Shown piece after piece: positions 6,922 through 21,719 of a stretch of 64,000 nt of DNA. Every line of letters begins with the position of its first letter. Within the stretch, counting starts at the first letter, position 1. Made by a program: the position numbers and the translations under genes. This DNA is from an uncultured Alistipes sp. (GTDB lineage: Bacteria; Bacteroidota; Bacteroidia; Bacteroidales; Rikenellaceae), in the NCBI GenBank assembly GCA_949288735.1, contig CASELE010000007.1, positions 1,737-65,736 on the forward strand, read 5' to 3'. The notes beneath the pieces are model-generated. The model was given only the letters and a program-made list of their open reading frames with translations. It did not search any database and was not told the DNA's origin.

Positions 6922-9741
6922 GTGAAGAGACTATCGCTACGTAACCTGTTCCTGACTGCGGCACTGCTGCTGGCCGCTCCCCTTTCGTTTGCGCAGAACA
7001 GCATCGAAGGCATCGTGACCGATGCCTCGACGGGACTGCCCGTCGTCGGTGCCACCGTAATCGTTTCGGGTACGACGAAGGGAACGGCGAGCGGTGCGGA
7101 CGGCAGCTACCGTCTGAGCGGCCTGGCCGACGGCACCCATGCGCTCGACATATCGATGATCTCCTACGAGACGCAGCACATCGGAGGCGTCGAACTGCGG
7201 GGCGGACGGACGGTGCGCATCGATGCGGCCCTTGCCGTGCAGAGCGAGCAGATCGGCGACGTGGTGGTGACGGCCGTGCGCCGCACGGGCTCCGAGGTGG
7301 CCGTGAACCGTGATGTCCGCGAGGCGATGATGGTCGTCAGCGGCATCTCGAGCCAGATGATAGGCAAGACGCAGGACCGCGACGCGGGCGAGGTGGTGCG
7401 CCGTATCCCGGGCATCTCGCTCGTGGACGACAAGTTCATCATCGCACGCGGCCTCTCGCAGCGCTACAACAACGTGTGGGTGAACAATGCCGCCGTTCCC
7501 AGTTCTGAGGCCGATTCGCGCGCCTTCTCCTTCGACATCATTCCGGCTGGACAGATCGAGAATATCATGGTACTCAAGTCGCCCGCACCCGAAGTGCCGG
7601 CCGACTTTTCCGGAGGATTCATCAAGATAGCCACGAAGGACATGCCCGCCGGCGACGAGGCGTCTATTACCTATTCGACCGGATTCAATACGGCGACCCA
7701 CTTCGGCGGTTTCCTTCACAATCCGGGGTCCGCGGGCGACCTCTTCGGTTTCGGCGGCGGCACCCGCATGATGCGGGGCGGCATGTCGGGTGCCTACGAC
7801 AACGGCGATGCCGCCTTCGTGAGCGAGATGACGCGTCACGGATTCGACAACGACTGGAGCGTCCGGCGCCGGAGCGCCGTGCCCGACCAGCGCCTTTCGG
7901 CCTCGTTCGGACGCCTGTGGCAACTGGATCGGGAGAGCCGTTTCGCCCTGACCGGGGCGGTGAACTACAGCTACGTTGAGCGCGCCTATACCGACATGTC
8001 GAACGTGCGCTACGGCGTGTGGAACAAGACAGCCGACAAACCCGTCTACCTCTACAACTACACCGACGATCAGTATCAGACCAATGTCAAGCTGGGGGCG
8101 ATGCTCAACCTGGCCTACGTACGGGAGCGGAGCCGGTACTATTTCCGCAACATCTTCAACCAGATAGGCCAGCAGCGGTATACGTTCCGCGAGGGGTGGC
8201 AGAACATCTCGTCGCGCTACGATCAGCAGAAGGCCGAGTATCTGTATTCGAGCCGCAGTTCCTACAACGGTCAGTTCGCCGGCGTGCACACGTCCGATGC
8301 CGGTCGTCTCGACTGGAATATAGGCTACGCCTACGCCAACAAGCTGCTGCCCGACCGCCGCATCATCAACCGGCTCGAGAACGACATCTACGGCGATGAC
8401 TACTATGGCATGATGCGCATCGATCAGAACGAGATGCAGCGCGACTTCACCCGTCTCGACGAACACATCGTCTCGGCGGCCGTGAACTACGAACACACAT
8501 TCCGCGAAGGTCGTCCGTTCGCTCCCGTACTCAAGGTGGGCGCCTACGGCGAATACCGCACCCGCAGGTACCGCGCGCGCTCCTACTACTACCGCTTCAA
8601 CGCTTCGAACCTGCCCGTGGACTTCGCCTACGGAGATCCGGTATCGCAGATTCTTACCGAAGCCAACTACGGTGCAGACCGCCTCTATCTCTACGACGAC
8701 AGCGACAATACGGACAGCTACGAGGGTTCGAACCGGCTGGCCGCAGCCTACGCGGCCGTAAGCCTGCCGCTGGGACGTCTGAACATCTATGCGGGTGTAC
8801 GTTTCGAACACAGCGACATGACATTGACGAGCTATACGCGCAAGAACGAATGGACCTCGCGCGACCGTGACTACACCTTCGACGACCTCTTCCCCTCGGT
8901 GAACGCCACCTTCGAGATCTCGGAGAAGCACCAGCTGCGCGCCGCCTACGGCATGTCGACCAATCGCCCCGAATTCCGCGAGGTGTCGGCCTCGACCTTC
9001 TACGATTTCGACCTCTTCTCCACGATCATGGGTAACCCCGACCTGTCGGCCGCCTACATCCAGAATGCCGATCTGCGTTACGAGTGGTATCCGTCGGCCG
9101 GAGAGAGCATTTCGCTGTCGGTCTTCTACAAGCACTTCCGCAACCCGATCGAGACGACGATCCGCGATGCGGGCGGAAGCTACACCTATACCTTCGAGAA
9201 TGCCGAGCGCGCCCGGGCCTACGGTATGGAACTCGACGTGCGCAAAAATCTGGACTTCATAGGCATGCGTGACTTCTCGCTCTCGCTCAACCTCTCGCTC
9301 ATCGAGAGCCGGGTCTTCTTCGACGACGCTTCGCTCGAACACGACCGCCCCATGCAGGGACAGTCGCCCTATATCGTCAACTGCGGCCTCTTCTACCAGC
9401 CGCAGCGGGCCGGGCTGACCGTCGGTGTGCTCTATAACCGCATCGGCAAGCGTATCATCGGCATCGGCCGCTCCGACCTCTCGTCGGGAGGCAGCGTCGA
9501 CAACGACATCCCCGACATGTACGAGATGCCGCGCGATGCGCTCGACCTGGTGGTCACCAAGTCGCTCGGCAAGCGCTGGGAGCTGCGCCTGAGCCTCAAG
9601 GATCTTATCTGTGACCGGGTGGAGCTGTGCCAGTTCCCGCAGTTCACCGGTGCGGACGGTGCGGTGCACGAGCGCAAGGAGGTGACCAAGAGCTACGACC
9701 CGGGGCGCAGCTTCGTCATCGGAGCCTCGGTGAAGTTTTGA
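6922..9741 (+). CDS. TonB-dependent receptor with N-terminal carboxypeptidase-regulatory-like domain
   Basis: Signal peptide from GTG 6922; plug region DAGEVVRRIPGISL..RGLSQRY; C-terminal ASVKF. Confidence 0.93.
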   Translation: MKRLSLRNLFLTAALLLAAPLSFAQNSIEGIVTDASTGLPVVGATVIVSGTTKGTASGADGSYRLSGLADGTHALDISMISYETQHIGGVELRGGRTVRIDAALAVQSEQIGDVVVTAVRRTGSEVAVNRDVREAMMVVSGISSQMIGKTQDRDAGEVVRRIPGISLVDDKFIIARGLSQRYNNVWVNNAAVPSSEADSRAFSFDIIPAGQIENIMVLKSPAPEVPADFSGGFIKIATKDMPAGDEASITYSTGFNTATHFGGFLHNPGSAGDLFGFGGGTRMMRGGMSGAYDNGDAAFVSEMTRHGFDNDWSVRRRSAVPDQRLSASFGRLWQLDRESRFALTGAVNYSYVERAYTDMSNVRYGVWNKTADKPVYLYNYTDDQYQTNVKLGAMLNLAYVRERSRYYFRNIFNQIGQQRYTFREGWQNISSRYDQQKAEYLYSSRSSYNGQFAGVHTSDAGRLDWNIGYAYANKLLPDRRIINRLENDIYGDDYYGMMRIDQNEMQRDFTRLDEHIVSAAVNYEHTFREGRPFAPVLKVGAYGEYRTRRYRARSYYYRFNASNLPVDFAYGDPVSQILTEANYGADRLYLYDDSDNTDSYEGSNRLAAAYAAVSLPLGRLNIYAGVRFEHSDMTLTSYTRKNEWTSRDRDYTFDDLFPSVNATFEISEKHQLRAAYGMSTNRPEFREVSASTFYDFDLFSTIMGNPDLSAAYIQNADLRYEWYPSAGESISLSVFYKHFRNPIETTIRDAGGSYTYTFENAERARAYGMELDVRKNLDFIGMRDFSLSLNLSLIESRVFFDDASLEHDRPMQGQSPYIVNCGLFYQPQRAGLTVGVLYNRIGKRIIGIGRSDLSSGGSVDNDIPDMYEMPRDALDLVVTKSLGKRWELRLSLKDLICDRVELCQFPQFTGADGAVHERKEVTKSYDPGRSFVIGASVKF

Positions 9742-11581: not shown

Positions 11582-11697
11582 GTTTCCGGTCCGGCGAAAA
11601 CGGCGCGCAATTGTTCGTTTTCGCCGATTTTATGCTATCTTTGCGTACCGAATACCAATGCGTCCGGAGACGGACAAGAACTCTAAACGACGATACG

Positions 11698-12867
11698 ATG
11701 AAGAGACTCTTATGGTGCCTCGTACTGCTCGTCGCGGGTTGCGCGGCGTCGGCACAGGAGCTGCGCGGCGGAGACGAACTCCTGTCTCCGGAGATACTGC
11801 CCGACAACCGGGTCGTCTTCCGCCTCTTTGCGCCCGGGGCGCAGAGCGTGGAGGTGACGGGCGATTTTCTTCCCGAGCGGGAGACCGACGGGCGCAAGGC
11901 CGAACCGATGAACCGCTCCGAAGAGGGCGTATGGAGCTATACGACCCCTGCGCCGCTGGCTCCCGAGCTCTACACCTACGCCTTCGTGGTCGACGGTCTG
12001 CGGACGACCGATCCGAACAACGCCCACGTCTTCCGCAACGTGGCGACGCTCTACAACATCTTTCTCATCGAGGGCGGGCGGGCCGATCTCTACCGTGTGA
12101 ACGACGTGCCGCACGGCACCGTATCGTATACCTGGTACCTGTCGCCGTCGACGGGCGAGGAGCGGCGCATTGCGATCTATACGCCGGCCGGATACGAAAG
12201 TTCCGGAAACAAGTACCCCGTGCTCTATCTGCTTCACGGTATGGGCGGCGACGAGGAGGCGTGGCTCGCCTTCGGCCGGACGGCCCAGATACTCGACAAC
12301 CTGATCGCCGAAGGATGGGCCAAGCCCATGATCGTGGCGATGCCCAACGGCAACATGTCGCAGCAGGCGGCTCCCGGCGAGTCGTCGCACGGCTTCGAGA
12401 AGCCGCGTTTCGTACTGCCGCATACGATGGACGGCCTCATGGAGAGCCGTTTTCCGGAGGTCGTGCAGTATGTGGACAGCCGCTACCGTACCGTACGCCG
12501 CAAGGAGGCCCGGGCCATTGCCGGCCTTTCGATGGGCGGGTTCCATGCGCTGCACATCTCGAAGCAGTATCCCGATCTTTTTGCCTACGTGGGACTCTTT
12601 TCTGCCGTCATCACGCCGCCCGATTCGGTGCAGTCCGCCGTCTACGACCGGCCGGCCGAAAAGCTGGCAGTACAGTTTGCGCGCCTGCCCAAGCTCTACT
12701 GGATCGGTATCGGCCGTTCGGATTTCCTCTACGACGAGAATGAGGCCTACCGCCGCGAGCTCGACGCGAAGGGGTATCCCTACGTCTATTACGAATCGGA
12801 GGGCGATCATATCTGGCGCAACTGGCGCGTCTACCTTACCGAATTCGTGCCCCGGCTCTTCCGCTGA
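11698..12867 (+). CDS. Exported esterase (CBM48-like domain plus alpha/beta-hydrolase, Fes/XynZ-like)
   Basis: Signal peptide; VVFRLFAPGAQSVEVTGDF; YPVLYLLHGMGGDE; nucleophile elbow GLSMGG; TATCTTTG box 11636-11643. Confidence 0.9.
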   Translation: MKRLLWCLVLLVAGCAASAQELRGGDELLSPEILPDNRVVFRLFAPGAQSVEVTGDFLPERETDGRKAEPMNRSEEGVWSYTTPAPLAPELYTYAFVVDGLRTTDPNNAHVFRNVATLYNIFLIEGGRADLYRVNDVPHGTVSYTWYLSPSTGEERRIAIYTPAGYESSGNKYPVLYLLHGMGGDEEAWLAFGRTAQILDNLIAEGWAKPMIVAMPNGNMSQQAAPGESSHGFEKPRFVLPHTMDGLMESRFPEVVQYVDSRYRTVRRKEARAIAGLSMGGFHALHISKQYPDLFAYVGLFSAVITPPDSVQSAVYDRPAEKLAVQFARLPKLYWIGIGRSDFLYDENEAYRRELDAKGYPYVYYESEGDHIWRNWRVYLTEFVPRLFR

Positions 12868-12973: not shown

Positions 12974-13555
12974 ATGAAAGTATTGATCGACAACGGCCAC
13001 GGTGCGGAGACACCGGGCAAGAGGTCGCCCGACGGGCGGCTCAGAGAGTATGCCTACACGCGCGAGACGGCCATGGAGACGGTCCGGCGGTTGCGCGATG
13101 CCGGAATCGATGCCGTGCGGCTGGTTCCCGAGGAGCACGACGTGCCCCTGTCCGAACGCGTCGGACGGGCCAACCGGTTCCACGCCGATAACGGCGGCCG
13201 CTGCCTGCTGGTTTCGCTCCACTGCAATGCGGCGGGCGACGGGTCGCAATGGCTTGCGGCCCGCGGCTGGAGCGTCTTCGTGGATCCTGCGGCCTCCGGG
13301 GCGAGCCGCAGGCTGGCAGAAGAGCTGGCGCGTGCGGCATCGGAGCGGGGTGTGCGGGTGCGCCGCGAGCATCCCGGCCGCGACTACTGGGAGCGGCCGT
13401 TCTACATCTGCCGGCGCACGCACTGCCCGGCCGTGCTGGTGGAGAACCTCTTCCAGGACAACCGCGAGGATGTCGACTTCCTGCTGTCCGACGAGGGACG
13501 CCGTTGCATCGTCGACCTCCTTACGGCCGGCATCCGTAACTATCTGATGGTGTGA
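12974..13555 (+). CDS. N-acetylmuramoyl-L-alanine amidase (Amidase_3), no signal peptide, lysin-like
   Basis: IDNGHG, REYAYTRE, VSLHCNA, PAVLVENLF Zn/catalytic pattern. Confidence 0.9.
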   Translation: MKVLIDNGHGAETPGKRSPDGRLREYAYTRETAMETVRRLRDAGIDAVRLVPEEHDVPLSERVGRANRFHADNGGRCLLVSLHCNAAGDGSQWLAARGWSVFVDPAASGASRRLAEELARAASERGVRVRREHPGRDYWERPFYICRRTHCPAVLVENLFQDNREDVDFLLSDEGRRCIVDLLTAGIRNYLMV

Positions 13556-14133: not shown

Positions 14134-14145
14134 GAATGTTCCCGG

Positions 14146-14286
14146 TCAATCCTGGCATGCCGGGCAGGTGCAGCGGGCGCTCCATGCGTAGCCGCAATCG
14201 TCGCAGACGAATTGAAGTTCGTCGAAGCGGCAGTGACGGTTGCCGCAGATGGGGCATTCGAGCCCCTGGATGTTCTCCGTATACAT
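14146..14286 (-). CDS. 46-aa Cys-rich zinc-ribbon protein, not in the ORF track
   Basis: Hand translation MYTENIQGLECPICGNRHCRFDELQFVCDDCGYAWSARCTCPACQD*; AT-rich TTAAAACAAT upstream; co-oriented with neighbours. Confidence 0.7.
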   Translation of the reverse strand: MYTENIQGLECPICGNRHCRFDELQFVCDDCGYAWSARCTCPACQD

Positions 14287-14414
14287 GGTCCGATTGTTTT
14301 AAGGGTTGTCCGTGTCGCCCGACAGATGCCGGCGCTTCCGTGAGGAGCGCCGCCTGCCGGACGGGCGATGCGGTCAGGGCCCCGGCGGCTGCCGGGACCT
14401 CCATCTGACCGGAG

Positions 14415-14693
14415 TCAGATGTACTCTTCCAGCCGTTCCGACAGGACGCCGTCCTCGTGCTCGACCCAACGGTTGTGCAGATCCCTGTCCAGCCGTTCGA
14501 TTGTATTTTTCGTCAGATGCTTACGGTTGTAATGGCTGCGGATCTCGTCTTCGTCGATGTCGATTTCGTTGCCGTCGTACGTTTCCGCCCAGGTGCGGGT
14601 GATGCGCACGGGATGAACATCCGACTTCCAGTGATCTTCGGTAGATTCGATGAAGCCGATATCCCGGCGTACGTTCTTGATTTTTCCTTTCAT
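14415..14693 (-). CDS. 92-aa hypothetical protein with a cold-shock-like N-terminus
   Basis: MKGKIKNVRRDIGFIE resembles the CSD start MKGKVKWF..KGFGFI; AT-rich leader TTAAACAACAAC. Confidence 0.65.
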   Translation of the reverse strand: MKGKIKNVRRDIGFIESTEDHWKSDVHPVRITRTWAETYDGNEIDIDEDEIRSHYNRKHLTKNTIERLDRDLHNRWVEHEDGVLSERLEEYI

Positions 14694-14720
14694 AAGATTG
14701 CGTGTTGTTGTTTAACGATG

Positions 14721-14773
14721 CAAAGATCGGACGACACCACGACATAAACTGTCCGGGTGAATGTCTATTTTTG
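14721..14773. promoter_or_regulatory. Divergent promoters with central inverted repeat, candidate WYL operator
   Basis: GATCTTTG on minus 14721-14728 (1 mismatch); GACA-N5-TGTC at 14741-14753; TATTTTTG on plus 14766-14773. Confidence 0.5.
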
Positions 14774-14794
14774 CAGCATCTAAACAATGAAGCC

Positions 14795-15718
14795 ATGACT
14801 AAGAACGGAAAATGCCTCTGGATCGTCGAGACGCTGCTGCGTACCGACGGGCTGTCGCTGCGCGAGCTGAACGACCGTTGGATGCAGTCGTCGCTCTGCG
14901 ACGACGGCCGGCAGCTGCATGAACGCACCTTTGCGCGTTACAGGGAGTTCATCTCCTCGGAGTATGCCATCGACATCGAATATTCGCCGTCGACGAACAA
15001 ATATTTCATCGAAAATGCCGACGAGATACGCGACAATGCGCTCTATCGCTATCTGCTGTCGGCCTATCGTATCGCCGACCTGAACACGATGGCCATACAC
15101 CACCGGAACCGGCTGCTGCTCGAACCGACACCTACGGGGACGCAGCACCTTTCGCCGTTGCTGCAGGCCATCGACCGCGGTGCGACCGTACTCTTCGACT
15201 ACACCTCCTATTACGATGTGGAGCGGTTGCAGCACTGGGAGCTGATACCGTGTTTCCTGCGCATATTCGAGGGGCGCTGGTATCTGATAGCCGAATACAT
15301 GGACCACAGCAAGGCCAAGGTCTTCGCGCTGGAGCGAATCTCCGAACTGCGGATCGGAAGCAACCTCATGCAGCCCGTACGAGTCACCGATGCCGCGGTG
15401 TATTACGCCGACTGTTTCGGAATCATCCGCGAGGACCGGGCGCCCTCGCTCGTCCGTCTGTGGGCCGACCGGGAGCAGCGCTGCTACCTCCGCGCCCAGC
15501 CGCTCCATGAGTCGCAGCGCGAAGTCGAAACGGCCGACGACCACTCCCTCTTCGAGTATTGGGTGCGTCCCTCCTTCGACTTTTACCAGAAGGTTCTCTG
15601 GATGCGCGAGAAGGTGTGCATCGTCTCGCCCGACAGCGTACGCGGCGAGATGGCTGCCATCGTAGGGCGTATGGCAGCCATGTACGGGGCCGCTCCGCAA
15701 GGATCCGGTACGCGGTGA
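14795..15718 (+). CDS. WYL-domain transcriptional regulator (wHTH-WYL-WCX)
   Basis: N-terminal HTH-like GLSLRELNDRW..ERTFARYR; literal RWYLIA and FALERI; start at ATG 14795. Confidence 0.92.
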   Translation: MTKNGKCLWIVETLLRTDGLSLRELNDRWMQSSLCDDGRQLHERTFARYREFISSEYAIDIEYSPSTNKYFIENADEIRDNALYRYLLSAYRIADLNTMAIHHRNRLLLEPTPTGTQHLSPLLQAIDRGATVLFDYTSYYDVERLQHWELIPCFLRIFEGRWYLIAEYMDHSKAKVFALERISELRIGSNLMQPVRVTDAAVYYADCFGIIREDRAPSLVRLWADREQRCYLRAQPLHESQREVETADDHSLFEYWVRPSFDFYQKVLWMREKVCIVSPDSVRGEMAAIVGRMAAMYGAAPQGSGTR

Positions 15719-15826: not shown

Positions 15827-17275
15827 TCACTCCGTCCGGTAGCGGACGTCGATCCGCTTCACGATATCGATACCGCAGGCGGCGCGGCTCCCGGCATCCG
15901 TGACGTCGAATGTCCGGTTGAGCGGGATAAAGCAGAGATAGGTCCGCCCCTCGTGGCGGATGCGCGTCCTCGTCGTGGTCGCATCGGCATACTGGAGCAG
16001 CTCCTCGCGCGGAATGCGGTACCACGATACGATCCGGAATCCGCCCTTGCCATCCTCTTCTCTCTCGCACTCGGCGTAGATGTATGCCGAAGAGAAGAGG
16101 CATTCGGTGTGCAGATACTCGTAGTCGCCCGTTTCGCAGCAGAACTCCCAGCCGTCGCCGACACCGGTGCGGCGATACAGTTCGTCGGTCGTTATCGGCA
16201 GCCGGGAGAAGAGCGTGGGGATGCGGTCGTAGCGGTTCGTCTTGAACTCGAACCCGAGACGGTCGGGCCGCCCGTCGTTGAAACTGAAGAACCCGAAGAG
16301 ACAGGCGTCTTCGCGAATCGGCTCTCCGTGACACAGGTGTTCCAGCTCCGACTGGCGTAGGATGGTGAAGGTATGCCCCTCGTCCTCGTCGTCGTAGAGC
16401 AGCACCTCATAGCGGGCCGTGGTGACCCGATGCAGGGTGGTGTCGACATGAATGCGCGTGAGGATGTAGTCCTCGCCCAGTGTCTCGAAGTTCCAGTAGA
16501 CCGAGGTGCCGCATTCGACGGCGTCGGTCCAGAGCCCCTCGATGGCCGGATGCACCTTGTTCCTGCTGCTGGCCTCGTTGGCCCGGTAGAGGGCTTCGGA
16601 CGAGTAGTTGTTCCGCAGGTTCGCCAGTACCTCCTGCGTGAAGGAGATGAGATCCAGACGGGTGTAGAGCTCTCCGTCGCATATCCGCTGCATGTGGCTG
16701 CGGTATAGCATCTGCAGAAAGGGGGCGAAGCGGAAGATGGGACTGTTCTCGTAGAGCGGAATCAGACGGTCACGCAGTCTCGTCAGGTCGCTCTTCAGCA
16801 TGTCGGGCCCCGTGTCGCCCGCCTTGCTGAAATAGGTGGGCAGGATCTTGAGCGACAGGAGAAGGAGCAATGCGACGTCGCAATGGGCGCATCTCTCCGA
16901 CGCTTTCCGGATTTCGGGACTTACCCGCCCGGCATGTTCGGGATCGAAGCGGCAGCGCAGCATCTCGTTGATCGCATCGGTCTCCGCCAGTTTCGTGTGG
17001 CATATGGACCTCCAGAAGCGCGTTGCGTTGCGGTAGTCGGCCAGCAGACCGTCGAGGTCGATCTTCGCGCGTTCCTGCGCCTCGCAGCAGAACTCGTTGT
17101 AGACGCATCGGGCGATGAAGTCCGATTTCTTGTTGAATCCGTTGTTCTGCAGATTCATGTGCGTGTGGCGCGAGAGCTCGTAGGTCGTGTTGCGGATCAG
17201 CCTCAGACGGCGTATGTCGTTGAGCAGTTCGATGTGTGAGAGTTGGGTCTGTGCCATGGTCTTCTCGGTTTGCAT
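15827..17275 (-). CDS. Hypothetical 482-aa cytoplasmic protein
   Basis: Long ORF with its own TAACTTTG box (17283-17290, minus); no motif recognised. Confidence 0.75.
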   Translation of the reverse strand: MQTEKTMAQTQLSHIELLNDIRRLRLIRNTTYELSRHTHMNLQNNGFNKKSDFIARCVYNEFCCEAQERAKIDLDGLLADYRNATRFWRSICHTKLAETDAINEMLRCRFDPEHAGRVSPEIRKASERCAHCDVALLLLLSLKILPTYFSKAGDTGPDMLKSDLTRLRDRLIPLYENSPIFRFAPFLQMLYRSHMQRICDGELYTRLDLISFTQEVLANLRNNYSSEALYRANEASSRNKVHPAIEGLWTDAVECGTSVYWNFETLGEDYILTRIHVDTTLHRVTTARYEVLLYDDEDEGHTFTILRQSELEHLCHGEPIREDACLFGFFSFNDGRPDRLGFEFKTNRYDRIPTLFSRLPITTDELYRRTGVGDGWEFCCETGDYEYLHTECLFSSAYIYAECEREEDGKGGFRIVSWYRIPREELLQYADATTTRTRIRHEGRTYLCFIPLNRTFDVTDAGSRAACGIDIVKRIDVRYRTE

Positions 17276-17538: not shown

Positions 17539-17546
17539 TATCTTTG
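17539..17546 (+). promoter_or_regulatory. TAnnTTTG promoter box driving the structured RNA and AT-rich cargo
   Basis: TATCTTTG. Confidence 0.65.
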
Positions 17547-17550
17547 CGAT

Positions 17551-17770
17551 TGCGGATCTGTGAGGGTCTGCGACAGGATAGATACGTGAATCTTAGGATT
17601 CCTGAACAACAAAACCGCCAATTTTGTCGGTTCCCGCTCGGGGACCGTACCTCAGGGAAGAATAAGCACGGTCTGCACACCATCGTACGGGTGCGGACTG
17701 CTTGTGATTCCATTCTGAGGGAGGGTGCTTGGCGGTGCCTGTTGTTCGGATGGATACGGCAGGTTCCGCA
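17551..17770 (+). ncRNA. Unidentified multi-stem structured RNA or leader (~220 nt)
   Basis: Nested pairings 17551-61/17759-70, 17600-10/17741-50, 17614-21/17729-36; hairpins 17628-47 and 17650-17720. Confidence 0.55.
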
Positions 17771-17798
17771 CCTTCTTGTTTGGATGTTAATTATGTAA

Positions 17799-19304
17799 TA
17801 TCAGCAAAATGATATACAAGAGTTCAGGCTCAAGTTGCTGGAAGAGGCAAGTAGCCTTCAGATAACTCAAGAGGAACGTGCACTGCTTAGACGGATACAG
17901 TCCATCAAAGGGGATAATGCGAAGTGGACTGCGTTGTCCAATGCATTGAATCCAACATTGCTTTTGACAGGTTCCGGTCCAGGAATGGTACCTCAAGCTA
18001 TCTTCCAAACCTTGCTGACAGCCACTCGTACGGCAGTTGAATATAAATCCATGCAGGGAGAATTGGATATAGAAGAAATACGCGCCATGTGGAATCTGCG
18101 CAAGCAGGATATGGAAATTATAAAAGCTCTGCGGCAGGATGCCATGGAGATTGTATTCAAATTGTATGACAAATATCATCTCGATGAATATGATCGTTTG
18201 ACAGAGGCTACGGCGAACATGTTCAGCTTGTGCATCTCCGAGCCGGATGTGAATAAGCGAATCCGTTTGCTCGAGGAGCATCGGAACGATTTCGGAATGC
18301 TTGCCGAATACTATTATTATTTGGGGATGGGATATTTGGAATCGGGGCAATATATAAAAGCCAAATCCTGTTTCGATACTTATTCTGACGTATATGCGAA
18401 AACCCCTCTCTTCCGTTGTGACGAAAAAGGTGGAACCATTGCTTTAGCAAGATTATCCTATGAAAAAAATTTGTCGCAAATTGAAAAGAAGCATCTTATT
18501 AATATCGTATTGCAGAATCTTCCCAATAATAGTGCCGCTCTGTTACAGTGTGCGATGATATACCTGTATGAATTGGAAGATGAAACCCAATGCCTGAATC
18601 TGTTGAGAAAAGGTCTGGACAATCCCTATGCCACCGACCGGGAGCTTCTGCTCATGACAGCGGTAGAACTGATGCCGGTAATGACAAGGCACAATGATGT
18701 AAATGGGCTGGTCCATAAATATTTGAGCGCTGGAACAATCGGATTCGATACTTATGTTGCGTATCTTATTCAATCGTCGGATTATGTTGGCGCTTTGTCG
18801 ACTCTCATATGCGTTGAAGATGTGAAAAAAAGACCAATCCTTGGGTCTGTCTTGGGCTGGCCAGCCGTAAGGTTGCATATTGTTTTACCTGAGCGCTTTA
18901 TATACGAAAGAGGCGATATAGCAGCAGTCTATTGGGAAACGCATAAGGCAAAAAAAATACTCATCAGAGAATTGCAGATAAAGGAGGAGGGTATAACTCT
19001 GAAGGAGATAGAGAAAGTGAGCTGTTTTGACCAATACAAGGATCTCAAATATCTGTTTTTTGAAACGCTTGTTCCCAATGAGATATTCGTTTTGAAAAGG
19101 GGAATTGATTACAATGAAATAGAGCAAGGAGAGTGGCCTCGGATGAGTCAGTTTGTTCTTTCCGGCCGTGATATAAAACAGATTGTGAAATTCTGTAAAA
19201 AGCATGAACCCGAAAATCGCGATACGGATCTCTTCTGTAAATCTAAAAGGAAAATCGGGTGGAAGAACCTGGGTGAAATCGACGGCGTAAAGTTTAAATT
19301 GTGA
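17799..19304 (+). pseudogene. 5'-truncated, AT-rich helical/TPR-like protein gene
   Basis: Frame opens after TAA 17796-98 in mid-protein-like sequence (YQQNDIQEFRLKLL) with no ATG; TPR-like EYYYYLGMGYLESGQYIKAKSCF. Confidence 0.6.
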
Positions 19305-19529: not shown

Positions 19530-20331
19530 ATGAAGAAGTCGAGAATATTGGCCTTTATTTTAATCATGGCCTTTTCGTTAGTAGAAGTTCAGGCGCATGG
19601 GAGTTGGCAAAAGCATGCCGATGATGTACGTGAAGTCTTGGGATTGCAGAAAAATATAAAACTGGATGGATGGATGGATTAGATTTATCAGTTCAGACAT
19701 GATTGACAAAAGGGATTTTCATGAGCAATTGAAGAGGGAGTACGGATTGACCATGAAACATCGGCTGCTCTTTCATTGGGCCTATGACGCCGAGCCCTGG
19801 AGTGCGGATATTGAGAAAATAATCATAGATTATTGTGATTGGCGGGAATTGAATCAAGAAACGCATATCCGAATGTTTAAAGAGAAGCTCAGACGTGAGC
19901 AGAGAGAAAGAAATAGTAAAATACTGCAAAAGACCGAGGAAACATTTGGTCTCAGTCATGGCGGGCGTGATCGGACCTATTCCCGTTTCTTGGCATCAAT
20001 GGCCTATAACATTCATATATTAGGAGATTATACAACAGATAATAGCGATTTGGATGGCTTGTACGATTTTAATAGACTGGTCGGACAAATTATTGAAGAA
20101 CTTAAGAAGTTGGATTCTTCCCTGTATTTTGTGAAATTGAAGAGAGAGATTAATCAGATCAATAGTAAGTCTATAGGAGTTCAGGAGAAGGCAGATGAAC
20201 TCATGGCGTATATGAAAAAGTCTGTCCCCGGTTTTATCCAGAAGGCATATCAAGGGAGTTTAAAAAGAAGATTGGAAAAGAACGGATATACGTTTCAGAC
20301 TGTGGGCTTATTGCCAAAAATCCGAATGTGA
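19530..20331 (+). pseudogene. Secreted putative metal-dependent hydrolase, frameshifted at (TGGA)4
   Basis: ATG 19530 gives a signal peptide and stops at TAG 19680-82; removing one TGGA joins it to ORF 19666..20331 (265 aa). Confidence 0.8.
19663..19678 (+). repeat. (TGGA)4 tetranucleotide repeat at the frameshift site
   Basis: CTGGATGGATGGATGGATTAG read directly. Confidence 0.95.
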
Positions 20332-20414: not shown

Positions 20415-21719
20415 CTATTTCTGCCGGAAGTAGATCTGGATGGGGACACCCGAGAAGTCCCACTGTTCGCGCAGCTTGTTCTCGAGGAAGCGGCGGTAGG
20501 GCTCGCGGATGTACTGCGGCAGGTTCACGAAGAAGGCGAACTGCGGTGTCGGTGTCGGCAGCTGCGTCACATACTTGATTTTGATGTACTTGCCCTTCGT
20601 CGCAGGGGGCGGCCAGTTCTCGATGATCGGCAGGAAGTATTCGTTCAGTTCCGAGGTCGCGATGCGGCGGCGGCGCGACTGGTGCACGCGGATGGCCGTC
20701 TGCAGCACCTCGAGGATGCGCTGCTTGTTGAGCACCGAGGTGAAGACTACCGGAATGTCGTTGAACGGGGCCAGCTTCTGCGCGATGAAGGCGCGCCACT
20801 CCTTCATCGTGTTGTTCTCCTTCTCGATGAGATCCCACTTGTTCACCACGATGACACACCCCTTGCGGTTGCGGACGATGAGGTTGTGGATGTTGAGGTC
20901 CTGCGACTCGAGCCCCTGCTGCGCGTCGAGCATGAGGATACAGACGTCCGACTCCTCGATGGCGCGTATCGAGCGCATCACCGAGTAGAATTCGAGGTCC
21001 TCCATCGTCTTGCCCTTCTTGCGCATGCCGGCCGTGTCGACCAGATAGAAGTCCATGCCGAACTTGTTGTAGCGCGTGCGTATCGAGTCTCGCGTGGTTC
21101 CGGCGATCGAGGTGACGATATTGCGCTCCTCGCCCAGCAGGGCGTTGGTAAGCGACGACTTGCCCACGTTCGGCCGGCCGACGACGGCGATGCGGGGCAG
21201 CTCCTCGTCGAGCTCGCTCGTGGGCTCGGCGGGCAGCGCCGCGAGGATGGCGTCCATCAGGTCGCCCGTGCCGCTGCCCGACATGGCGCTGATGCCGTAG
21301 GGGTCGCCCAGGCCGAGCGCGTGGAACTCGTGGACGGAGTAGAGCTGGTCGTTGTTGTCCACCTTGTTGCAGACCAGCAGCACGGGCTTGGTCGTGCGGC
21401 GCAGGATATCGGCCATCATCTGGTCGAGGTCGGTGATGCCCGTGGCTACCTCGACGAGAAAGAGTATGACGTCGGCCTCGTCGATGGCGAGCAGCACCTG
21501 ACGGCGGATCTCCTCCTCGAAGATGTCGTCCGAATTGACGGTGTAGCCTCCCGTGTCGATGATGGAGAACTCCTTGCCGTTCCAGTCGGTCTTGCCGTAG
21601 TGGCGGTCGCGCGTGGTGCCGGCCGTGGAGTCCACGATGGCCTGCCGTCGTCCGACCAGACGGTTGAAAAGGGTGCTTTTGCCCACGTTGGGCCTTCCTA
21701 CTATTGCTACGAGGCTCAT
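20415..21719 (-). CDS. der: Ribosome biogenesis GTPase Der (EngA)
   Basis: Two G domains, each GRPNVGKS; DTGG/DTAG; KH-like C-terminus. Confidence 0.98.

Follow-up and report, generated by a model that had tools for sequence, protein, structure and literature searches.

What does a WYL-domain regulator control when it stands back to back with three small genes? The question is raised by a locus of an uncultured Alistipes sp. (contig CASELE010000007.1), of which we analysed a 64-kb stretch, here called the window. In the window, a gene for a regulator with WYL and WCX domains is divergent from a minus-strand run of three genes encoding a 92-amino-acid (aa) protein, a 46-aa putative zinc-ribbon mini-protein with eight cysteines, and a DUF1232 membrane protein (Table 1). 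The initial annotation, which located all four genes where we find them, had proposed that the small genes are the regulon of the WYL protein and may form an undescribed defence or stress system. Comparison with related loci suggests a different answer: the window probably contains the conserved chassis, without effector cargo, of a WYL-regulated accessory or defence locus with exchangeable cargo, a type found in gut Bacteroidales. The three small proteins do not look like a new defence system that is complete in itself. The zinc-ribbon and DUF1232 genes form a frame around variable effectors in the relatives, and these effectors are absent in the window.

The related loci were gathered through the WYL protein, from assemblies, species genomes and metagenome contigs, and the 33 loci with a WYL protein at least 59% identical are referred to as clade A. 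The zinc-ribbon gene lies 140-813 bp upstream of the WYL gene, on the opposite strand, in 30/33 clade-A loci, and the DUF1232 gene is found further along the zinc-ribbon strand in 24/33. Of the loci that depart from this pattern, most are truncated by the end of their contig and L019 is rearranged. The co-occurrence of the WYL, zinc-ribbon and DUF1232 genes thus extends to about 24-30 loci other than the window, contrary to the lack of co-occurrence that the initial annotation named as refuting its proposal, and one of them (L007) repeats the exact trio of 92-aa, 46-aa and DUF1232 genes. The gene between the WYL and zinc-ribbon genes varies. Usually it is a member of a family we call c2 (125-137 aa); the window and L007 have the 92-aa gene there, and a third type is present elsewhere.

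The window has every feature of the clade-A chassis except a leader and cargo between the zinc-ribbon and DUF1232 genes. The interval between the matches to these two genes is 1548-4126 bp in all other loci, compared with 16 bp in the window. In most loci the interval opens with a terminator-like hairpin, a promoter box of the Bacteroidetes type and a leader of roughly 200 nt. Terminator-like hairpins are located 3′ of the zinc-ribbon stop codon in L025 and L005, with stems that differ from each other; no terminator-like site was found at the 12-nt junction of the window. The leader RNAs are 75-96% identical between loci, while the synonymous sites of the flanking genes are saturated. RNAalifold predicts 44 base pairs in the leader, 22 of them with compensatory changes. 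The leaders of five loci match no Rfam family at E<=1, and loci with one cargo type (c12) have no leader match. The arrangement suggests that the relatives hold two transcription units, one with the first gene and the zinc-ribbon gene, and the next with the leader, the cargo and the DUF1232 gene. In L025, a group II intron domain (RF00029, 58 bits) is also present at 8187-8283, about 1.5 kb beyond the WYL gene.

At least nine unrelated cargo sets, mostly low in GC (guanine plus cytosine) content, follow the leader. They include a HerA-like ATPase (PADLOC mad8, 4e-16) with a SprT-like metallopeptidase, a Bunzi BnzB-like protein (PADLOC, 3e-23), a PDC-M40B-like protein (PADLOC, 1e-13), and lipoprotein nucleases of the Endonuclease_NS_2 (9e-21) and WHH/colicin DNase (7e-10) types. 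Several cargo sets have no match in Pfam or PADLOC. In the WYL tree, copies of the regulator that are less than 0.03 substitutions per site apart carry different cargo, which is the signature of a swap-in slot. WYL homologues that are 42-50% identical also face low-GC cargo. L055, which has the same palindrome as the window (see below), carries BnzB (7.7e-97) and PDC-M09A (2.7e-68), and L047 carries an Hsp70-like and HerA-like pair. In L056, where the WYL protein is 42% identical and the palindrome is again the same, the DUF1232 gene is the immediate divergent neighbour of the WYL gene and is followed by a BnzB-like gene (3.8e-42).

An alignment of the WYL intergenic regions across loci revealed one design, whatever the first gene is. 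Each direction has a -7 box, and a palindrome with the core GACA-N5-TGTC is centred between the boxes. The typical form in the relatives is CTCGGACA-AAAAG-TGTCCGAG. The window palindrome, cgacataaactgtccg, sits in an intergenic region of 101 bp, with spacings of 12 nt to the minus-strand box and 10 nt to the WYL box, and its core (GACANNNNNTGTC, 14741-14753) is the single match in the 64-kb window. The minus-strand box follows what we take to be the Bacteroidetes TAnnTTTG consensus. Its equivalent, a GCAAAAT(A/T)AA box, is equidistant from the palindrome in all related intergenic regions, and a conserved TATCTTTG is found in the relatives where the window has the -7 box of the WYL gene. The palindrome is located 52-60 nt before the WYL ATG in every clade-A locus (in three with one mismatch). 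WYL relatives at 50% and 42% identity have the same palindrome, with which the range becomes 52-64 nt, and it is absent below about 42%. An exact palindrome occurs in 25/58 non-redundant WYL upstream regions, while among random 160-nt stretches from these loci the background rate is 1.0%. Neither the leader promoter at 17.5 kb nor a decayed second copy of the chassis has the palindrome (both described below). Because of this conserved position and the CapW- and BrxR-like layout, we take the palindrome as the candidate WYL operator. The 92-aa, zinc-ribbon and DUF1232 genes are very probably the direct regulon, much as the initial annotation had it, and the WYL gene would be autoregulated. Separately, the core pattern occurs 12 times in the same genome, compared with 3 occurrences of a reversed control; one site on another contig (CGGACAAAGCATGTCCG; G000:C25:7025-7043, L126 1526-1544) agrees fully with the operator consensus of clade A.

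Both domains of the regulator are over the Pfam cut-offs. The WYL domain (PF13280) scores 35.2 bits vs a cut-off of 21.8 (E=1.2e-8) and the WCX domain (PF25583) 27.3 bits vs 23.9 (E=4.6e-6), and each is matched by 31/31 family members. The protein also matches the generic WYL model of PADLOC (E=1e-22) and retains all 45 family-invariant columns. The open reading frame (ORF) is open from a GTG at 14702; the gene most likely starts at the ATG at 14795, as all 30 aligned homologues begin MTKNGKC. Profile matches to solved structures range from E=5e-8 to 4.5e-4. Over the WYL and WCX domains, the best is a PafBC-type chain (7p5x, E=5e-8), followed by DriD chains (8tp8 and 7tzv, E=1e-5 to 2e-6), and the match to a CapW chain is remote (9c5g, E=4.5e-4). 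By analogy with regulators of this kind, the ligand of the WYL domain may be single-stranded DNA (ssDNA) or a nucleotide (PMC11662680, PMC10853764). The N-terminal domain of about 105 aa is of an unrecognised type and is presumed to bind DNA. Neither the window regulator nor any of the 31 family members matches a helix-turn-helix (HTH) family in Pfam or NCBIfam, and a search of solved structures gave no HTH for residues 1-106 (E<=10). The only pointers to an HTH are the source names of homologues at 43-50% identity, "YafY" and "helix-turn-helix transcriptional regulator". A widespread gut-metagenome locus (L062-L079, e.g., L064 6959-8597) encodes an HTH-less WYL and WCX ORF that aligns to residues 101-297 only; this ORF is divergent from a second, full-length WYL gene (29% identical).

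The 92-aa ORF is, judging from its homologues, a real gene family. An exhaustive search of 1.84 billion proteins found 38 representative clusters, a profile search found 85 clusters at 90% identity, and the family alignment has 29 members. These two kinds of search were needed, as a word-indexed homologue search with the protein alone returned only itself. The gene was found in 0/24 same-genus genomes and the family in 0/40 relatives and 0/400 other Bacteroidales species. Neither the 92-aa protein nor the WYL protein had a relative on viral contigs. The AlphaFold model of the protein (mean predicted local distance difference test, pLDDT, of 85) consists of a long beta-hairpin, a strand, two helices and a short hairpin. 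The initial annotation regarded this protein as cold-shock-domain-like, and we rejected this reading: the protein has no cold-shock Pfam match at E<=0.1, and a fold search with the model gave no PDB or viral match better than E=0.1 and no oligonucleotide/oligosaccharide-binding (OB) or cold-shock chain among the top 50. A relationship with c2, the usual first-slot gene, was likewise rejected (hhalign probability 0.4%). L007 carries a 92-aa family gene as its first gene and L029 one in its cargo slot, and further accessory cassettes also contain the gene. It is a rare, movable accessory gene. The spacer that follows it in the window has a predicted folding energy of -67.5 kcal/mol (RNAfold), and the matching spacer of L007 has a hairpin, then TTTTCT, and a promoter-like TATATTATTTG.

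Other members of the 92-aa family are found in quite different company. In L111 (7001-12876) and L112, a 59%-identical homologue leads a cluster resembling those for ribosomally synthesised and post-translationally modified peptides (RiPPs), with PqqD, a 29-aa ORF, two radical-SAM (S-adenosylmethionine) genes, DUF3944 and YeeR_C, and with a WYL and WCX gene last, on the same strand. L113 (6050-12737) and L114 have a cassette that opens with a promoter of the TAnnTTTG type and a leader from the same RNA family, after which come, in this order, a very acidic 40-aa ORF, a 92-aa-family gene, a BnzB-like gene of 450 aa, two further genes and a gene for a 315-aa DUF1232 protein. This cassette has no WYL gene within 7 kb. 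In L115, the 92-aa family gene adjoins type I restriction genes.

The 46-aa zinc-ribbon ORF is often skipped by gene callers, and its matches to the Pfam Zn_Ribbon_TF model (20.6 bits, cut-off 29) and to an NCBIfam zinc-ribbon model (17.8, cut-off 32) fall below the cut-offs. Seven of its eight cysteines are invariant in all intact relatives and the eighth is kept in all but one (L004), and every intact copy retains the pattern CPxCG-x12-CxxCG with a CxCxxC tail. The ratio of nonsynonymous to synonymous substitution rates (dN/dS) is 0.06-0.23. The cysteine conservation and this ratio argue that the ORF is a real gene. Its product could be a relay or adaptor.

The DUF1232 gene closes the divergent operon in the window and is the constant 3′ end of the chassis in the relatives. 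The match to PF06803 is well over the cut-off (46.6 bits vs 23), the window protein retains all 37 invariant columns of a 13-member alignment, and dN/dS against relatives is 0.16-0.37. The AlphaFold model is all-helical, with two hydrophobic helices at about residues 104-118 and 131-146, and hydropathy peaks at residues 111-121 and 134-144. A fold search with this model (mean pLDDT 65) found no match (best E=2.1). A PHROG search of the small genes yielded an unnamed DUF1232 family as the sole match. The DUF1232 protein would be a membrane component. The initial annotation had envisaged two possible nucleic-acid binders and a membrane protein; the two hydrophobic helices agree with the latter, while a nucleic-acid binder of the cold-shock type is not borne out for the 92-aa protein. 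The profile of this DUF1232 subfamily matches in 24/400 other Bacteroidales species. We found nothing in the literature searched that ties DUF1232 to WYL proteins or to any function.

Several observations weigh against the reading of the window as a chassis without its cargo. The window is the only empty slot among about 30 loci, so the cargo-less state is observed once. The clade-A loci are mostly metagenome contigs picked via the WYL gene, and many are near-duplicates. The WYL gene predicts DUF1232 within clade A, and DUF1232 does not predict the WYL gene. Among the DUF1232 contexts inspected, 8/9 are a lone gene of 130-145 aa with ordinary neighbours and no WYL gene or leader nearby, and in the only one with a WYL gene (G240) it is 11.5 kb off, with low-GC genes between. 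The role of DUF1232 may therefore be general membrane physiology that is borrowed by the clade-A loci. PADLOC matches to single cargo proteins do not prove complete, working systems. At E<=0.1, PADLOC-DB 2.0 has no match for the 92-aa, 46-aa or DUF1232 proteins, or for the 482-aa and 489-aa proteins encoded nearby. This is in line with the initial annotation, in which no known system was recognised. Its suggestion of a defence link stands for the cargo of the relatives, which matches PADLOC models, and not for the three small proteins themselves. The winged HTH that it gave the regulator is putative: no HTH is recognisable in the first 105 residues by Pfam, NCBIfam or a search of solved structures, so DNA binding is read only from the palindrome and the family type. 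Finally, the window WYL protein is on a long branch (0.51) and its placement within clade A has moderate support (83/92), so that the empty slot could be ancestral and not the result of a loss.

Loss of the cargo is nevertheless the likelier history. The window WYL protein is nested in clade A (clade support 100/99) and both clade-A sub-clades contain a leader and cargo, which makes a loss in the window lineage more parsimonious; ancestral emptiness is the less probable, if still serious, explanation. The retention of all invariant residues in the WYL and DUF1232 proteins argues against simple decay. A second copy of the chassis in the same genome (G000:C1:149300-151200, L123 6280-8222) is decayed, with no WYL gene and no operator palindrome. 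Its c2 gene encodes 127 aa, its zinc-ribbon gene is intact, its leader has lost an internal part, and it also contains a 92-aa ORF with a double CxxC motif. Its DUF1232 gene is cut to 68 aa with stop codons and is followed by a gene of 132 aa, as in G004 and L019.

The control of the locus could work as follows. A dimer of the WYL and WCX protein would bind the palindrome cGACA-N5-TGTCcg between the divergent -7 boxes and repress both its own gene and the operon of the 92-aa, zinc-ribbon and DUF1232 genes. If the regulator works like CapW, BrxR, DriD and PafBC, it would be freed or re-programmed by a nucleic-acid signal, and the operon would be turned on. The likeliest signal would be ssDNA that arises when DNA is damaged or phage replicates and that the WYL domain binds. 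In the relatives, the controlled unit would be short, consisting of the first gene and the zinc-ribbon gene and closed by a terminator, and in most of them a second promoter, the structured leader RNA, the variable low-GC effectors and DUF1232 would follow. In the window the middle section is absent, and DUF1232 would thereby be fused directly to the WYL-controlled unit. A bolder version, which we regard as unlikely, is that the mini-protein and DUF1232 are the universal working parts of a plug-in immune chassis. The WYL sensor would release the mini-protein, the mini-protein would act on the leader RNA to allow transcription into whichever effector is in the slot, and DUF1232 would be the shared membrane executor or anchor; the window operon would be the minimal functional form.

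The same genes can be read in other ways. The operon might be a self-sufficient stress or abortive-infection module in which the three small proteins are the effectors, induced by the WYL regulator after DNA damage or infection. In Caulobacter, DriD turns on the small membrane protein DidA. The three genes of the window are intact, are under purifying selection and form the unit directly below the operator, the WYL gene of L056 has DUF1232 as its immediate divergent neighbour, and the two predicted hydrophobic helices of DUF1232 would fit a membrane effector. DriD is, furthermore, a WYL activator of DNA-damage genes (PMC10853764). However, every other clade-A locus has additional large effector-type genes in the slot, the three small proteins match no PADLOC model, the 92-aa gene can be replaced by the unrelated c2, and the relatives of DUF1232 are mostly lone chromosomal genes, which leaves this alternative rather improbable, although it is the strongest of those considered. 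If the slot was emptied by a deletion of leader and cargo, the module might also be a decaying remnant that has no useful function left and is heading for loss. That the window is the sole empty slot, that a clearly decayed copy exists on contig C1 of the same genome, that the WYL gene is on a long terminal branch and that the genome is small (1.66 Mb) would all be expected of a remnant. A remnant would not be expected to have four intact ORFs, every invariant residue in the WYL and DUF1232 proteins, and a palindrome and both -7 boxes at the family spacing. The GC content of the module is also near the host value, which suggests long residence under selection, and we consider decay to be quite unlikely.

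A last possibility is that the frame is a housekeeping unit of an integrative mobilisable element, with a role in transfer, exclusion or maintenance, and that the cargo is of the kind that such elements ordinarily carry, e.g., secreted toxins. Some copies do have such neighbours. L004 and the copy in the same-genus genome G004 adjoin Mob/relaxase genes, L004 also Bro-N and integrase genes, L005 adjoins IS66, and L007 adjoins phage lysis genes. Some of the cargo consists of polymorphic-toxin-type lipoprotein nucleases (WHH, Endonuclease_NS_2) and is not classical defence. On the other side, no integrase, relaxase or transposase was found in the window island between 12.9 and 20.4 kb, the flanks change from locus to locus, so that the frame is not bound to one element, and several cargo sets strongly match anti-phage models. 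This explanation is the least probable of all, and we retain the conserved, WYL-regulated chassis as the best description of the locus.

The module belongs to about 7.4 kb of accessory DNA between an esterase gene and der (Table 1). A WYL gene of the window type was found in 1/150 same-genus genomes, the amidase gene in 3/60 and the 482-aa gene in 0/100. The protein encoded by the 482-aa gene has no Pfam, PADLOC, NCBIfam or PHROG match. Synteny with the three nearest genomes breaks exactly at the der stop codon (20415), and these genomes have in common only der and the genes to the right of it. To the left, the region with the TonB receptor, lipoprotein, esterase and island has another arrangement in these genomes, and the comparison with them gave no insertion borders for the island. 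The DNA around the amidase gene is 70% GC, and the 3′ end of the gene overlaps that of the DUF1232 gene by 16 bp. We considered a holin/endolysin pair of DUF1232 and the amidase and dropped it, as the genes are convergent and the amidase gene is absent from all related WYL loci.

Table 1. Features of the accessory island and its borders. Positions are in the numbering of the 64-kb window.
Feature	Position	Strand	Remark
Esterase gene	11611-12867		Left neighbour of the island; itself patchy in the nearest genomes
Endolysin-type N-acetylmuramoyl-L-alanine amidase gene	12974-13555	+	Amidase_3 2.3e-25; phrog_435 2.4e-37
DUF1232 membrane-protein gene, 197 aa	13540-14133	-	PF06803 E=2.9e-12
Junction of zinc-ribbon and DUF1232 genes, 12 nt (empty cargo slot)	14134-14145	-	Stop-to-start codon distance
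8-Cys zinc-ribbon mini-protein gene, 46 aa	14146-14286	-	Constant chassis part in relatives
GC-rich spacer, 128 nt, 92-aa gene to zinc-ribbon gene	14287-14414	-	Strong hairpin, no T-run
92-aa gene, small uncharacterised family	14415-14693	-	First gene under the divergent promoter
-7 promoter box of the minus-strand operon	14720-14728	-	Reverse complement GATCTTTGC; read from sequence
Candidate WYL operator palindrome cGACA-TAAAC-TGTCcg	14740-14755		Centred between the divergent -7 boxes
-7 promoter box TATTTTTG of the WYL gene	14766-14773	+	Read from sequence
WYL and WCX regulator gene, 307 aa	14795-15718	+	Pfam WYL and WCX over cut-offs
482-aa orphan gene, Cys-rich product	15827-17275	-	Convergent with the WYL gene; same accessory island
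Distant copy of the structured leader RNA	17545-17800	+	nhmmer match to the clade-A leader model
489-aa gene and 221-aa gene, low GC	17835-19304 and 19666-20331	+	Downstream of the leader at 17545-17800
der GTPase gene	20415-21719	-	Right border of the island

The right part of the island has a leader of its own. This copy is promoter-driven and about 40% identical to the clade-A leaders, with which it shares the AAACCGCCAA/TTGGCGG helix, and its flanking helices show compensatory changes. It precedes a low-GC block (41-47% GC vs about 60%) with the 489-aa and 221-aa genes. We considered whether the leader and the 489-aa cassette are the window's own missing cargo moved sideways, and judged this unlikely because of the low identity of the leader to those of clade A. 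In L056 and L052, homologues of the 489-aa protein are encoded on the cargo side of a WYL homologue. These homologues are 698 and 797 aa long, the one in L056 has a signal-peptide-like start, and a protein of about 272 aa follows each.

WYL regulators beside defence genes are well known in Proteobacteria, and the control of defence in gut Bacteroidales is far less charted. A compact frame of regulator and operator, 8-Cys mini-protein, leader RNA and DUF1232 would provide a positional handle for new defence or toxin genes in Bacteroidales. The window would be a natural "empty" version for asking what the constant parts do alone, and DUF1232, a family of unknown function, gains a first reproducible regulatory context. 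Were the window operon a minimal functional form, it would be a WYL-triggered membrane response that has no dedicated effector. Were it only a stripped remnant, the window itself would be ordinary and the family architecture would still be useful.

Among known systems, CapW offers the closest parallel in layout. The capW gene, on the other strand, is located upstream of the genes for CBASS (cyclic oligonucleotide-based anti-phage signalling system), and its product binds a palindromic promoter sequence (PMC9122588). Both CapW and DriD sense ssDNA (PMC11662680, PMC10853764). Like CapW, the window regulator has WYL and WCX domains, is encoded on the opposite strand upstream of its putative targets, and has a palindrome of roughly 20 bp in the shared promoter region, and in the window's relatives there are defence genes among the targets. 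We infer that the regulator and palindrome form a repressor-operator pair similar to those of CapW and BrxR. The differences are nonetheless considerable. The similarity to CapW is remote (9c5g, as given above), and the N-terminal domain of the window protein is not recognisable as a winged HTH. The window palindrome is at the -33 regions between two -7 boxes, whereas the CapW site overlaps the -10 box. The direct targets would be two to three small genes and not CBASS, and the effectors of the window's relatives have a second promoter and a leader RNA.

The resemblance to BrxR is in the general logic, which is the repression of costly defence genes. BrxR usually heads an operon, on the same strand. 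Its binding sites are inverted repeats of 11 bp set 5 bp apart, and it is found beside a range of defence systems, in a survey that covered Proteobacteria and in whose text "Bacteroid" occurs nowhere (PMC9122601). As with BrxR, one regulator family is found beside many unrelated defence-type gene sets, and the inverted repeats have a 5-bp spacer. Unlike BrxR, the window regulator travels with an 8-Cys mini-protein and DUF1232 and, in the relatives, with a structured leader, and together these make up a constant frame around a defined slot for insertions. DriD and PafBC provide the best solved-structure matches over the WYL and WCX domains (PMC10853764, PMC11804915). They respond to ssDNA and control small genes, either adjacent or in a regulon, which is similar to the window layout, but they are activators with multi-gene regulons, and none of their targets has a homologue in the window module. 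The P2/P4 prophage hotspots of E. coli are defence hotspots with constant flanks and swappable cargo. The likeness to the loci described here is that constant flanking genes bracket a slot that differs between near-identical copies and holds low-GC, defence-like cargo. The frame described here is not a prophage, however. Regulator, mini-protein, RNA leader and membrane protein make up the frame, which is itself mobile between contexts. The frame, the 8-Cys mini-protein and the link to DUF1232 appear to be undescribed in the literature searched, and the whole appears to be a variation on the BrxR/CapW theme.

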